Shown piece by piece: positions 41,481 to 45,503 of a DNA stretch of 64,000 bases (the first letter of the stretch is position 1; the number at the start of each line of letters is the position of its first letter). Below the pieces are notes generated by a model. It saw nothing but the letters and a program-made list of their open reading frames with translations. It ran no database searches and was not told where the DNA came from. Origin of the DNA: Escherichia coli. GTDB lineage: Bacteria > Pseudomonadota > Gammaproteobacteria > Enterobacterales > Enterobacteriaceae. The DNA is taken from the NCBI RefSeq assembly GCF_003334305.1, contig NZ_QOWS01000003.1; one strand, written 5' to 3'. The position numbers were made by a program, and so were the translations under genes.

Positions 41481-42428
41481 TCAGGACAGGGTGGCGGGGA
41501 TGATGATTTGTTGCGGTTCGCTGCGCCCGGTTACCTGTGCGATCAATTGGCAGGCCGCCTGGCGTCCAGCTTCGGCGTAGCCAGGATCTACGGTGACGAT
41601 CTCCGGATGAAGGAATTTCATTAACGGCGTATTACCGACGCTCGCCAGTTGCAAGGTGTCGATGCGTTGCTCTTGCAGGTATTTACTTGCGCCAAGAGCC
41701 AGAGTGTCGGTTGCGCACAGTAACGCGGTAGTTTCAGGCGTAATCACTTTTGCTACGTTTTCATAGCCTTGCTTCATAGCAAGCCCTGGCAGAGCGGCAA
41801 CGGGATGCAGTTTATGCGCTTTGCAGAACGCCAGGTAGGCTTCGTGACGTCGCTTCCCGGTCGTCACGTCACTATGCGGCACGCCGAGATAACTGATATT
41901 GCGATGCCCCTGGTCATAGAGCCGTTGCATCAGGATCTTGATTGCCCCTTCGTCGTCATAACAGACCGAAGCAAAGCCTTTTGCGTCACGCGCCAGCAGA
42001 ACCAGCGATGACTGCCAGTGGGCTAACATTTCTTCTGTTATGCCAGTAAAACCGAACAACACTACGCCGTCGATATTACGCCGTTTCAGCACCCCCAAAT
42101 GTTCGGCAACTAATTGCGGGGAAAACTGACTTTCCATCATGATTGGGTCGTAACCTTGTTCATAGAACGCTGGCAGCATGGTTTGAACAGCGAGATTTTC
42201 TGACAACGAATCCAGGCGGGTAACAATGATGGCGACCACTTTATCGCTTTGCCCACGCATAGCGCGCGCAGAGCGGGAAGGGGAAAATCCATGCTGATTC
42301 ATCACTGCTTCAACACGCTCGCGGGTGCGCTGGCTCACGCCGCTTTCGTTATTCAGCACCCGGGAAACCGTAGATTTCCCCACGCCGCTTAAGCGCGCGA
42401 TGTCTTTGATGGTCAGCCGATTTTGCAT
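41481..42428 (-). CDS. treR: trehalose operon repressor (LacI family)
   Basis: 315-aa protein with N-terminal LacI-type HTH (MQNRLTIKDIARLSGVGKSTVSRVLNN). Confidence 0.95.
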   Translation of the reverse strand: MQNRLTIKDIARLSGVGKSTVSRVLNNESGVSQRTRERVEAVMNQHGFSPSRSARAMRGQSDKVVAIIVTRLDSLSENLAVQTMLPAFYEQGYDPIMMESQFSPQLVAEHLGVLKRRNIDGVVLFGFTGITEEMLAHWQSSLVLLARDAKGFASVCYDDEGAIKILMQRLYDQGHRNISYLGVPHSDVTTGKRRHEAYLAFCKAHKLHPVAALPGLAMKQGYENVAKVITPETTALLCATDTLALGASKYLQEQRIDTLQLASVGNTPLMKFLHPEIVTVDPGYAEAGRQAACQLIAQVTGRSEPQQIIIPATLS

Positions 42429-42502
42429 CCTGTTGTCCTGTAACGTGTTGTTTAATTATTTGAGCCTAACTTTACCCGTGCATTCAGCAATGGGTAAAGT
42501 CT

Positions 42503-42519
42503 GGTTTATCGTTGGTTTA
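42503..42519 (+). promoter_or_regulatory. PhoP box (GGTTTA-N5-GGTTTA direct repeat) of the mgtA promoter
   Basis: Perfect hexamer direct repeat with 5-nt spacer followed by a TATTAT -10-like element, about 95 bp upstream of mgtL. Confidence 0.75.
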
Positions 42520-42539
42520 GTTGCCAGCAGGTATTATAT

Positions 42540-42806
42540 CGCCATAGATGCTACGAATATTATTGGATTCTCCTTATTATTTGCGGCGCTTTTTTCACTT
42601 ACCGGAGGTTATATGGAACCTGATCCCACGCCTCTCCCTCGACGGAGATTAAAACTTTTCCGGTAAGCCCGTCTTTTCACGGCGTTACCGGATGCGTAAG
42701 GCCGTGACGTTTTAACGTCCCTGCTCAGCTTTATTACCTTCAGGTAAGGCTTCGCCACGCCTGAAGACATTTCTGTACTGTTTCAGACAGTGCGGAGGGA
42801 CTCCTT
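42540..42806 (+). promoter_or_regulatory. mgtA 5' leader (Mg2+/proline-responsive attenuation region containing mgtL)
   Basis: About 265-nt untranslated leader between the PhoP-dependent promoter and the mgtA start, containing the proline-rich leader ORF. Confidence 0.7.
42613..42666 (+). CDS. mgtL: mgtA leader peptide MgtL (17 aa, proline-rich)
   Basis: ATG 42613 to TAA 42664-42666 encodes [17 protein letters not shown] inside the mgtA 5' leader. Confidence 0.8.
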
Positions 42807-45503
42807 ATGTTTAAAGAAATTTTTACCCGGCTCATTCGCCATTTACCTTCCCGTCTGGTTCATCGCGATCCATTGCCTGGCGCGCAGCAGACAGTGAATA
42901 CGGCGGTCCCGCCGTCCTTAAGTGCGCATTGCCTGAAAATGGCGGTGATGCCCGAAGAAGAATTATGGAAAACGTTCGACACCCATCCGGAAGGGTTAAA
43001 TCAGGCGGAAGTGGAATCTGCCCGCGAACAACATGGTGAAAATAAATTACCCGCACAACAACCGTCGCCGTGGTGGGTACATTTATGGGTCTGCTATCGC
43101 AACCCCTTTAATATTTTACTCACCATTCTCGGCGCTATTTCTTACGCCACGGAAGATTTATTTGCCGCGGGCGTTATTGCGCTAATGGTCGCTATTTCAA
43201 CGTTACTGAACTTTATTCAGGAAGCACGTTCCACTAAAGCGGCAGATGCCCTGAAAGCGATGGTCAGCAATACCGCGACGGTGCTGCGCGTAATTAACGA
43301 CAAAGGCGAAAATGGCTGGCTGGAGATCCCGATCGACCAGCTGGTGCCCGGCGATATTATAAAACTGGCGGCGGGAGATATGATCCCGGCAGATTTACGT
43401 ATCTTGCAGGCGCGGGATCTGTTCGTCGCTCAGGCGTCGTTAACCGGTGAGTCTCTGCCCGTGGAAAAAGCCGCTACCACTCGCCAGCCGGAGCACAGCA
43501 ATCCGCTGGAGTGCGACACGCTGTGTTTTATGGGCACCACCGTGGTGAGCGGCACGGCACAAGCAATGGTGATTGCTACAGGTGCCAATACCTGGTTTGG
43601 TCAACTGGCGGGGCGTGTTAGTGAGCAGGAAAGCGAGCCGAATGCCTTTCAGCAGGGGATCAGCCGCGTCAGTATGCTGCTGATTCGCTTTATGCTGGTG
43701 ATGGCTCCGGTGGTGTTGCTTATCAACGGTTACACCAAAGGCGACTGGTGGGAAGCGGCACTGTTTGCGCTTTCGGTCGCGGTAGGCTTAACGCCGGAAA
43801 TGTTGCCGATGATTGTTACCTCGACGCTGGCGCGCGGCGCAGTAAAGCTGTCGAAACAGAAAGTGATCGTCAAACATCTGGATGCTATTCAGAACTTTGG
43901 CGCAATGGATATTCTGTGCACTGATAAAACTGGCACCCTGACACAGGACAAAATTGTGCTGGAGAATCATACCGATATCTCCGGTAAAACCAGCGAACGC
44001 GTGCTGCATAGCGCGTGGTTGAACAGTCATTATCAGACCGGACTTAAAAACCTGCTCGATACAGCGGTGCTCGAAGGTACGGATGAAGAGTCAGCGCGCT
44101 CGCTGGCCAGTCGTTGGCAAAAAATTGATGAGATTCCGTTTGATTTCGAGCGTCGCCGGATGTCGGTGGTAGTGGCAGAAAATACCGAGCACCATCAGCT
44201 GGTTTGCAAAGGTGCATTGCAGGAAATCCTCAATGTGTGTTCGCAGGTGCGTCACAATGGCGAGATTGTGCCGCTCGATGACATCATGCTGCGTAAGATT
44301 AAGCGGGTTACTGATACGCTGAATCGTCAGGGGCTGCGCGTGGTTGCGGTGGCGACGAAATACCTGCCAGCGCGTGAAGGAGATTACCAGCGGGCGGATG
44401 AATCCGACCTGATCCTCGAAGGATATATTGCTTTCCTTGATCCGCCAAAAGAGACAACCGCTCCGGCACTGAAGGCATTAAAAGCGAGTGGCATTACCGT
44501 AAAAATCCTTACTGGCGACAGTGAGTTAGTTGCAGCGAAAGTGTGCCATGAAGTGGGGCTGGACGCGGGAGAGGTGGTCATTGGTAGTGATATTGAAACG
44601 CTATCTGACGACGAACTGGCAAATCTTGCACAGCGCACCACGCTGTTTGCCCGCCTGACGCCGATGCATAAAGAACGCATTGTGACCTTACTGAAGCGCG
44701 AAGGGCATGTGGTTGGCTTTATGGGCGATGGTATTAATGATGCGCCCGCCTTACGCGCTGCGGATATCGGCATTTCTGTGGACGGCGCGGTAGATATTGC
44801 CCGTGAAGCGGCTGATATCATCCTGCTGGAAAAAAGCCTGATGGTGCTGGAAGAGGGGGTTATTGAAGGACGTCGCACTTTCGCCAACATGCTGAAATAC
44901 ATCAAAATGACGGCGAGCTCCAACTTCGGTAATGTGTTCAGCGTGCTGGTGGCGAGTGCTTTCTTGCCCTTCCTGCCGATGTTGCCGTTACACTTGCTTA
45001 TTCAGAACCTGCTGTATGATGTGTCACAGGTGGCGATCCCGTTTGATAACGTCGACGACGAGCAAATTCAAAAGCCGCAGCGTTGGAATCCGGCGGATCT
45101 GGGGCGCTTTATGATCTTCTTCGGACCGATCAGCTCGATCTTCGATATTCTGACGTTTTGCCTGATGTGGTGGGTATTCCATGCCAACACGCCGGAAACG
45201 CAAACGCTGTTCCAGTCGGGATGGTTTGTGGTGGGCTTACTGTCGCAAACGCTGATTGTGCATATGATCCGCACCCGCCGTGTGCCGTTTATTCAGAGCT
45301 GTGCATCGTGGCCGTTAATGATCATGACCGTGATCGTGATGATTGTCGGGATCGCATTGCCGTTTTCACCGCTGGCCAGTTATCTGCAGCTGCAGGCGCT
45401 GCCGTTAAGCTATTTCCCGTGGCTGGTTGCGATTCTGGCAGGGTATATGACATTAACTCAGTTGGTGAAAGGATTTTATAGCCGTCGTTACGGCTGGCAG
45501 TAA
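42807..45503 (+). CDS. mgtA: Mg2+-importing P-type ATPase
   Basis: 898-aa protein with P-type ATPase DKTGTLT phosphorylation motif; N-terminus MFKEIFTRLIRHLPSRL... Confidence 0.97.
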   Translation: MFKEIFTRLIRHLPSRLVHRDPLPGAQQTVNTAVPPSLSAHCLKMAVMPEEELWKTFDTHPEGLNQAEVESAREQHGENKLPAQQPSPWWVHLWVCYRNPFNILLTILGAISYATEDLFAAGVIALMVAISTLLNFIQEARSTKAADALKAMVSNTATVLRVINDKGENGWLEIPIDQLVPGDIIKLAAGDMIPADLRILQARDLFVAQASLTGESLPVEKAATTRQPEHSNPLECDTLCFMGTTVVSGTAQAMVIATGANTWFGQLAGRVSEQESEPNAFQQGISRVSMLLIRFMLVMAPVVLLINGYTKGDWWEAALFALSVAVGLTPEMLPMIVTSTLARGAVKLSKQKVIVKHLDAIQNFGAMDILCTDKTGTLTQDKIVLENHTDISGKTSERVLHSAWLNSHYQTGLKNLLDTAVLEGTDEESARSLASRWQKIDEIPFDFERRRMSVVVAENTEHHQLVCKGALQEILNVCSQVRHNGEIVPLDDIMLRKIKRVTDTLNRQGLRVVAVATKYLPAREGDYQRADESDLILEGYIAFLDPPKETTAPALKALKASGITVKILTGDSELVAAKVCHEVGLDAGEVVIGSDIETLSDDELANLAQRTTLFARLTPMHKERIVTLLKREGHVVGFMGDGINDAPALRAADIGISVDGAVDIAREAADIILLEKSLMVLEEGVIEGRRTFANMLKYIKMTASSNFGNVFSVLVASAFLPFLPMLPLHLLIQNLLYDVSQVAIPFDNVDDEQIQKPQRWNPADLGRFMIFFGPISSIFDILTFCLMWWVFHANTPETQTLFQSGWFVVGLLSQTLIVHMIRTRRVPFIQSCASWPLMIMTVIVMIVGIALPFSPLASYLQLQALPLSYFPWLVAILAGYMTLTQLVKGFYSRRYGWQ

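Follow-up and report, generated by a model that had tools for sequence, protein, structure and literature searches.

Anatomy of the mgtA control region in an Escherichia coli contig: PhoP box, mgtL leader peptide and competing RNA folds

Described relatives and identity of the locus

In the trpL, hisL, pheL and tnaC attenuators, where the ribosome stands on a leader peptide determines which of the alternative hairpins forms and so whether transcription goes on. The leader of mgtA, the gene of a Mg2+-importing P-type ATPase, differs from these in having no intrinsic terminator, in a promoter that is also gated by a two-component system, and in its favored signal, Mg2+-dependent ribosome stability at the acidic, proline-rich N-terminus of its leader peptide, MgtL, rather than starvation for the cognate amino acid. 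Here we describe the mgtA control region found in a 64,000-nucleotide (nt) stretch of Escherichia coli DNA (contig NZ_QOWS01000003.1, assembly GCF_003334305.1). This whole stretch is referred to as the window, and coordinates are window positions unless stated otherwise.

The mgtA gene of Salmonella enterica is read from a promoter of "architecture I," in which a single PhoP box in direct orientation (TGGTTTATCGTTGGTTTA) lies 12 nt from the -10 element and overlaps the -35 position, and in which activation is of class II and independent of the C-terminal domain of the alpha subunit of RNA polymerase; the leader that follows is 264 nt long, with mgtL at nt 71-124 (PMC3335776; PMC6460261). The Salmonella leader resembles the one in the window further in its stems A and B as alternatives to stem C, and in the prolines at positions 3, 5, 7, and 9 of its peptide. 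It differs in how the peptide starts (MDPEP in a locus of subsp. arizonae, L042, versus MEPDP in E. coli), and its dependence on the termination factor Rho is established, whereas that of the E. coli leader is disputed. Moreover, Salmonella has mgtCBR with mgtP, and E. coli does not (PMC2650801). The leader of corA in E. coli and Salmonella, with its leader peptide gene corL, is also alike: A short open reading frame (ORF) lies within a stem A, an OFF state with stems A and B is set against ON stems, and transcription terminates prematurely in the 5' leader (PMC11552253). It is unlike mgtA in that it serves another transporter gene, outside the window, and has no PhoP-dependent promoter, and in that corL has a single conserved proline and a UUG start.

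We consider it almost certain that the treR-mgtA intergenic region of the window, together with the leader that it encodes, is the control region native to E. coli mgtA, with its two tiers. The identification as a PhoP-dependent promoter followed by the mgtL-containing, Mg2+-responsive leader is already known and is correct, given the identity with strain K-12, the RefSeq annotation, the match to an Rfam family, and the fact that about 100 orthologous loci conserve all of its elements. Compared with K-12 MG1655 (mgtA/mgtL, b4242/b4702; K-12 coordinates equal window coordinates plus 4424818), the leader is the same base for base (K-12 4467362-4467624, zero substitutions, with mgtL at 4467431-4467484), and the PhoP box, the -10 hexamer and all stems are identical. 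Only two substitutions separate the intergenic regions, both in the untranscribed part: The window has T where K-12 has G at 42471, and C where K-12 has T at 42524, the latter site falling in the spacer between PhoP box and -10 hexamer. The flanking genes carry many more differences, mostly at third-codon positions: Across 41481-43381, we counted 26 substitutions in the 948 nt of treR and eight in the first 575 nt of mgtA, against none in the 263-nt leader, which indicates that the leader is under more constraint than the flanking coding sequence. Judged by its sequence, then, the locus is the mgtA control region itself and not merely a likeness of it.

In RefSeq, the identical locus is annotated with treC-treB-treR and, on the opposite strand, mgtL-mgtA, followed by ridA and pyrI-pyrB, and the NCBIfam matches of the mgtA and treR products are at the equivalog level. 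All of the 5426 complete E. coli genomes that were searched contain a match to the 378-nt treR-mgtA intergenic region, which is covered to at least 80% in 5424 of them; it is 100% identical in O157:H7 PV15-279 and many other strains, and, among the matches listed, the mgtL annotation is present under the intergenic match. The region in the window is intact, of the K-12 type and ordinary.

To follow the locus beyond E. coli, we scanned 100,044 species-representative genomes with a pattern made of the mgtL Shine-Dalgarno sequence and first seven codons, which returned 120 loci. About 12 of these, in unrelated phyla (Oscillospiraceae, Kocuria, Gemmatimonadota and others), are long ORFs with acidic, proline-rich N-termini and were discarded as chance matches. 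Among the true loci, every one long enough has an MgtA homologue 155-360 nt 3' of the mgtL ATG (three loci end before mgtA), and a divergent treR lies upstream of mgtL wherever the flank sufficed. They come from Escherichia, Salmonella, Citrobacter, Enterobacter, Kluyvera, Leclercia, Kosakonia, Buttiauxella, Mangrovibacter, Shimwellia and other genera. Sequence comparison thus indicates that treR, the PhoP box, a -10 element at +12, mgtL, stems A, B, and C, and mgtA are kept together across many enterobacterial genera. Unless another number is given, the conservation counts below derive from a 103-sequence alignment of the retrieved loci.

Promoter, leader peptide and leader RNA

The PhoP box (Table 1) is perfect with respect to the direct-repeat definition (T/G)GTTTA-N5-(T/G)GTTTA. 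With one mismatch allowed, it is the sole match in the 64-kb window, where chance predicts 0.11 matches; at least one turned up in 10 of 100 shuffled windows. The box and its flanks are identical to the mgtA box of Shigella flexneri (tGGTTTAtcgttGGTTTAg), for which binding of phosphorylated PhoP has been demonstrated by gel shift and DNase I footprinting (PMC5775216), and the box agrees with that of Salmonella mgtA at 18 of the 19 listed positions (PMC3335776, Table 1 therein). The geometry is also that of Salmonella architecture I, with a direct box at the -35 position, 12 nt from the -10 hexamer. A box with at most two mismatches was found in 100 of 104 orthologous loci, and in 98 of those 100, TAnnnT follows exactly 12 nt downstream. 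A consensus scan of 42300-42950 found no sigma-70 -35/-10 pair, which is not evidence against a promoter, since activator-dependent promoters lack the -35 element. In its sequence features, the region corresponds to a PhoP-activated class II promoter, whose dependence on phoP and on low Mg2+ would be as described in the literature. From the position of the -10 hexamer and the Salmonella leader numbering (PMC6460261), we infer that transcription starts at about 42543/42544.

The ORF assigned to mgtL has only 17 sense codons and would not be significant by itself; its significance comes from its identity to the annotated and published MgtL and from its location inside the Rfam match. The encoded peptide is the same as the published MgtL (PMC8934632) and as the RefSeq mgtL product, annotated at the identical sequence. 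Across about 105 orthologous loci, the corresponding ORFs have 14-18 codons and open with M[DE]PDP[TAS]P, a start that the retrieval pattern largely dictates. Proline codons vary synonymously at position 3 (CCT/CCC) and at positions 7 and 9, and CCC stands at codon 5 in 99 of 103 rows. Prolines 3, 5, and 7 occur in all orthologues, as imposed by the retrieval pattern; Pro9 is free of the pattern and is present in 68 of 103. Positions 2 and 4, which are acidic, are conserved to the same degree as the prolines. The synonymous changes at codons 3, 7, and 9, together with the maintained N-terminus, indicate selection on the protein sequence, and the synonymous variation lends indirect support to the view that mgtL is translated and that the efficiency of its translation would set read-through into mgtA. 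Translation of mgtL in E. coli has been documented with reporter fusions and toeprints (PMC11282234).

The leader matches the Rfam family RF01056 (Magnesium-II) over the full model, and the match ends 94 nt 5' of the mgtA ATG. We accordingly class the leader as a member of this family, whose Mg2+-responsive conformation and expression are described in the literature (PMC11552253; PMC11282234). Folded without constraint, 42544-42812 has a minimum free energy (MFE) of -87.3 kcal/mol (z = -4.1 versus shuffled sequences), and this MFE structure reproduces the Rfam fold with stems A and B. Stem A contains a perfect 9-nt inverted repeat (I5, 42598-42606 with 42659-42667), is present in both the Rfam and the MFE structures, and pairs in 93% of alignment cells, mostly in invariant columns; its core was recovered by RNAalifold. 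Stem B corresponds to inverted repeat I2 (42677-42688 with 42696-42707) and is part of the Rfam structure, and RNAalifold independently predicts a 12-bp helix there. Pairing is kept in 97.5% of its cells, with compensatory double changes at seven of its 10 pairs. Taken as a whole, the OFF structure has 93.6% of its cells paired, with double changes at 11 pairs (seven of them in stem B), a result reached by none of 500 shuffles.

Stem C corresponds to inverted repeat I1 (42659-42672 with 42679-42692; 14 nt, 86% complementary) and excludes both A and B, because it takes up the 3' arm of the former and the 5' arm of the latter. The segment UCCGGUAAG (42659-42667) pairs either upstream, in stem A, or downstream, in stem C, but never both, and the last codons and stop of mgtL (UUC CGG UAA, 42658-42666) lie inside the arm 42657-42667 common to the two stems. 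As isolated helices, A, B, and C have predicted energies of -11.8, -11.7, and -14.8 kcal/mol, respectively. When the footprint of a ribosome with Pro3 in the P site was masked, covering the 5' arm of stem A, the MFE structure changed to stem C, whereas with the mask at the stop codon stem B was kept. Masks with the P site past Pro3 did not produce the switch to C; in these folds, stem A closes around the ribosome, which is physically unrealistic. As modeled, the sequence is capable of the published switch between A/B and C. In Enterobacter-type loci, as read from the alignment rather than tabulated per sequence, the stem B arm is TCACCGG and the arm shared by stems A and C is still CCGGTAAG.

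A 5-bp hairpin lies directly 3' of stem B and extends past the 3' end of the Rfam match (Table 1). It pairs in 89.6% of cells over about 90 sequences, with G-C to A-U swaps in two columns and 31 double-change cells, and its covariation score was reached by none of 500 shuffles; we found no role for it in the accessible literature.

An earlier note on this DNA, made from its letters alone, had described 42503-42666 as a complete mgtA control region, with a perfect GGTTTA-N5-GGTTTA box, a -10-like TATTAT, a long leader and a 17-codon proline-rich mgtL. All these elements are where the note placed them: The box is unique in the 64 kb, the hexamer stands 12 nt after it, the leader comes to about 263 nt from the predicted start near 42544 to the ATG at 42807, and mgtL is identical to the annotated and published gene. 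Compared with the characterised sequences, neither the box nor mgtL differs, and the alternative stem-loops that the note expected from RNA structure prediction were found as the mutually exclusive A/B and C. The note was also right that the system is not novel, given a leader identical to that of K-12, annotated in RefSeq, and belonging to RF01056. The word "complete" does not hold. The interval stops at the mgtL stop codon and takes in only the first ~123 nt of the leader, leaving out stem B, the 3' arm of stem C (42681-42692), the hairpin 42706-42719, the RNA 3' end at 42758, and the ribosome-binding site of mgtA, all of which lie in 42667-42806. The value of the check is mainly negative, in that it yields no discovery; it gives a coordinate map of every element and flags the unsettled terminator mechanism in E. 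coli. The locus itself is a textbook case of layered control, with a two-component system for external Mg2+ and a leader RNA and peptide for internal Mg2+ and translation capacity.

Table 1. Coordinates of the elements of the mgtA control region and of its flanking genes in the window
Feature	Position	Strand	Description
treR	41481..42428	-	315-aa ORF; NCBIfam TIGR02405, 590.7 bits (cut-off 357); RefSeq; trehalose operon repressor, divergent upstream gene
PhoP box	42503..42519	+	GGTTTAtcgttGGTTTA (direct reading: GGTTTATCGTTGGTTTA); direct repeat GGTTTA-N5-GGTTTA in place of -35
-10 hexamer	42532..42537	+	TATTAT; exactly 12 nt 3' of PhoP box; architecture I, class II activation
mgtA 5' leader	42544..42806	+	~263 nt to mgtA ATG at 42807; start inferred
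RF01056 (Magnesium-II) match	42598..42713	+	125.8 bits (gathering threshold 40); E = 1.5e-26; full model 1-115
Stem-loop A	42598..42667	+	Arms 42598-42608/42657-42667; encloses mgtL and inner hairpins 42614-42616/42626-42628 and 42633-42637/42644-42648
mgtL Shine-Dalgarno	42604..42608	+	GGAGG; in 5' arm of stem A; columns invariant in the alignment, but set by the retrieval pattern
mgtL	42613..42666	+	ATG, 17 sense codons and TAA; Pro at 3, 5, 7, 9; acidic residues at 2, 4
Stem-loop C	42659..42692	+	Arms 42659-42669/42681-42692; alternative "low Mg2+ / ON" hairpin
Linker	42668..42678	+	CCCGUCUUUUC; pyrimidine-rich, between stems A and B
RNA 3' end	42672	+	K-12 4467490; Term-seq; 6 nt after mgtL stop, 3' foot of stem A (PMC7815308 supplementary file 1)
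Stem-loop B	42679..42705	+	Arms 42679-42688/42696-42705; "high Mg2+ / OFF" hairpin
Hairpin GACGU-UUUA-ACGUC	42706..42719	+	5 bp; directly 3' of stem B, extending past RF01056 3' end (42713)
RNA 3' end	42758	+	K-12 4467576; ~+215, 49 nt before mgtA ATG (PMC7815308 supplementary file 3)
mgtA Shine-Dalgarno region	42794..42799	+	GGAGGG; purine-rich GGAGGGAC-like block kept 4-7 nt before mgtA ATG in orthologues
mgtA	42807..45503	+	898-aa ORF; NCBIfam TIGR01524, 1607.5 bits (cut-off 610.75); RefSeq; Mg2+-importing P-type ATPase, regulated gene

Mechanism and rival explanations

In the mechanism that we favor, sequence identity, membership of RF01056, the three-way complementarity with its energetics, and conservation and covariation come from this analysis, and PhoP binding, the dependence of mgtL translation on Mg2+, and the kind of terminator at work are taken from the literature. 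In the first tier, PhoQ would sense low external Mg2+, and phosphorylated PhoP would bind the box and recruit RNA polymerase in class II fashion, so that transcription would begin near 42544. In the second tier, polymerase would elongate through the 263-nt leader, which can adopt two mutually exclusive folds. With ample cytoplasmic Mg2+, ribosomes would complete mgtL, stems A and B would form, the pyrimidine-rich region around B would be exposed, and transcription would terminate early, before mgtA; on the Salmonella model, as set out in PMC11552253, the linker between A and B may belong to the Rho-loading (rut) region. With low Mg2+, ribosomes would halt on, or be lost from, the N-terminal E-P-D-P-T-P stretch, and a limiting supply of prolyl-tRNA (Pro-tRNA), of elongation factor P (EF-P), or of EttA would act in a similar way. 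The 5' arm of stem A would then be occluded and its 3' arm free, C would replace B, and polymerase would enter mgtA. PMC11552253 relates the A/B and C states to the efficiency of mgtL translation. In E. coli, ribosomes have been reported to drop off at the EPDP motif of MgtL, with EttA stabilising the ribosome that has Pro3 in the P site (PMC11282234), and Mg2+-dependent ribosome destabilisation at this motif is the favored sensor (PMC11282234; PMC11552253). In Salmonella, EF-P and the supply of Pro-tRNA for the mgtL proline codons have been described as further inputs (PMC6460261).

Several points weigh against this account, all of them touching the mechanism and none the identification of the locus. 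The transcription start is placed indirectly, from the -10 hexamer and the Salmonella numbering. The retrieval pattern fixes CCGGAGG and M-[DE]-P-[DE]-P-x-P, and conservation at these positions is partly by construction. The footprint folds are equilibrium structures under a local mask, not co-transcriptional kinetics, and are uninformative as to which codon matters. Stem C pairs in 91.8% of cells, but its covariation is nearly nil. We regard this test as uninformative rather than negative, because the shared arm is frozen by pairing with two partners; near-invariance fits such an arm and is no independent proof of it. Moreover, the stem C pair 42665/42686 (A-U; alignment columns 79/122) is nonstandard in 18 of the 103 sequences, and the stem B pair that uses the same 5'-arm column shows a compensatory change from U-A to C-G in 18 sequences, a pattern that the alignment displays in the Enterobacter-type loci mentioned above. 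Selection thus appears to hold stem B more strictly than stem C. Finally, as regards termination, E. coli mgtA received a termination score of 1.0 when chromatin immunoprecipitation was done with a Rho R66S mutant (PMC5499598), and two later papers noted that E. coli may not share the Rho mechanism (PMC12360218; PMC11552253).

The sensing step can be explained in other ways. It is possible, if less than probable, that the leader RNA is itself the Mg2+ sensor, i.e., a true riboswitch in which Mg2+ stabilises stems A and B directly and translation of mgtL is accessory. The Rfam family is curated as a magnesium riboswitch aptamer, and the covarying stem B and the further hairpin argue for selection on RNA structure. 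As summarised in PMC11552253, structure probing revealed two Mg2+-dependent conformations, and with the Salmonella leader in vitro, Mg2+-dependent folding alone modulated Rho termination. The same paper nonetheless places regulation mainly through mgtL and leaves undecided whether the sensing of Mg2+ works by binding to the RNA or by way of translation efficiency. Further arguments against an accessory role of mgtL come from the peptide, whose N-terminus is kept through synonymous changes of proline codons 3, 7, and 9, and from the E2Q/D4N substitutions in E. coli MgtL, which raised expression of an mgtL fusion and abolished that of an mgtA fusion (PMC11282234).

The idea that the main signal read by mgtL is the availability of proline or Pro-tRNA, together with EF-P activity, rather than Mg2+, seems to us doubtful. 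It draws on the proline codons at 3, 5, 7, and 9, of which the first three are universal but pattern-imposed and the last is free to vary, and on Salmonella work in which the mgtL proline codons, proline limitation, and loss of EF-P were tied to more mgtA mRNA (PMC6460261; PMC3335776). The E. coli studies, by contrast, invoke destabilisation of the ribosome by acidic residues plus prolines at low Mg2+ (PMC11282234; PMC11552253), and the equal conservation of acidic positions 2 and 4 is in line with this; the two inputs are compatible. The description of the system in the earlier note as Mg2+/proline-sensing attenuation can thus stand as shorthand for a known system, but it leaves ribosome destabilisation at EPDP under-described and gives prominence to proline, which is one of several inputs.

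How the E. coli leader terminates is contested between PMC5499598 and PMC7815308. The 3' end at 42758 was mapped by Term-seq with and without bicyclomycin, where it has a Rho score of 1.56, lies in a region called as one of significant Rho termination, and is tagged "riboswitch"; its intrinsic terminator score, 1.46, is below the threshold of 3 (PMC7815308). It marks a site of either premature termination or processing. We found no intrinsic terminator (hairpin plus U-tract) in a scan of 42300-42950, and the leader closely resembles that of Salmonella, for which Rho dependence is established. Formation of the leader 3' end without Rho, by prolonged pausing with release or by nuclease processing after translation-coupled decay, is in our judgment unlikely. 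It would account for the R66S score, which was obtained although RNA polymerase occupancy fell at mgtA (PMC5499598), and for the second 3' end, at 42672, which lies just 3' of stem A and resembles an exonuclease-trimmed product; it would also agree with the possible nonconservation flagged in the later papers. The authors of PMC5499598 themselves allowed, however, that R66S may be without effect at the mgtA site. The end at 42672 may be a trimmed product guarded by stem A, or it may belong to a separate short mgtL transcript. Termination in the E. coli mgtA leader is likely to depend on Rho, but the published data conflict.

Finally, the notion that the motifs fell together by chance and regulate nothing has a negligible probability: Short ORFs and hexamer repeats do arise at random, as in the shuffled windows that gave a box-like match, but the Rfam match (E = 1.5e-26), the covariation, the gene order, and the box/-10 spacing refute it, with box, -10, ORF, and Rfam structure in a fixed geometry at about 100 loci of many genera and a sequence identical to an experimentally characterised locus.

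Minor features and variation among strains

The 3' half of the leader could carry an extra, translational layer of control, a proposal that we rate as distinctly improbable. In the MFE structure, the conserved GUCCCU (42717-42722), which follows on the covarying hairpin 42706-42719, pairs with AGGGAC (42796-42801), which overlaps the mgtA Shine-Dalgarno sequence. Across loci, GUUCC goes with GGAAU in 11 cases, apparently a single clade, and GUCCC with GGGA[CU] in 51, and the combination of GUCCC with GGAAU does not occur. This may be an anti-Shine-Dalgarno helix, but it was noted as a weakly supported observation, as duplexes between segments of the same locus (-12.5 kcal/mol) are barely more stable than duplexes across loci (-12.1 kcal/mol). 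Were it real, read-through transcripts would need a second event to be translated, which could bear on the conflicting E. coli Rho data. We found no description of such a layer in the accessible literature, which left several primary papers outside its coverage.

The first ~55 nt of the leader (42544-42597), which in the E. coli fold form a hairpin rich in A and U and then a U run, are its least conserved part. Their length varies by genus, with the box lying at about -116/-112/-110, about -100, or about -80 from the mgtL ATG, and 12 nt are missing from this part in E. coli E69 (L038) and in locus L091. This segment is probably dispensable for the switch.

Upstream, a perfect 9-nt inverted repeat, ACTTTACCC-N14-GGGTAAAGT (42469-42477 with 42492-42500), adjoins the PhoP box. 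Its right arm falls within a block, CAATGGG[C/T]AAAGTC (42488-42501), that is kept from Escherichia to Enterobacter and Leclercia, and its left arm, TAACTTTAC, is kept in Escherichia, Salmonella, and Citrobacter; in K-12 the repeat is imperfect, owing to the G in place of T at 42471. The segment 42469-42501 could be a core element of the promoter from which treR is read divergently, a hairpin in the 5' untranslated region of treR, or an extended contact for PhoP or RNA polymerase. Work by Yamamoto from 2002 reportedly concerns the action of PhoP on mgtA and treR promoters that overlap divergently.

Two further ORFs overlap the leader, one of 34 codons (42548-42652) and one of 53 codons on the antisense strand (42609-42770); neither has a ribosome-binding site or an annotation, and both were treated as chance occurrences. 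Nine PLSDB records labeled as plasmids (H16-H24) contain the region, all typed as non-mobilizable. Eight of them measure 0.37-4.9 Mb and were taken as chromosome pieces labeled plasmid and were rejected as a sign that the region is mobile; the ninth, NZ_AP023207.1, measures 94 kb. Loss of the region is rare among E. coli, with two of the 5426 genomes covered to less than 80%. One of the two is strain GCU-H1 (L123, NZ_CP178558.1), in which the match breaks off 120 nt into the intergenic region (window position ~42549 onward is missing) and is followed by an IS1 transposase, a truncated Rid-family gene, and bdcA, so that mgtL, mgtA, and neighboring genes are lost by an IS1-associated deletion.

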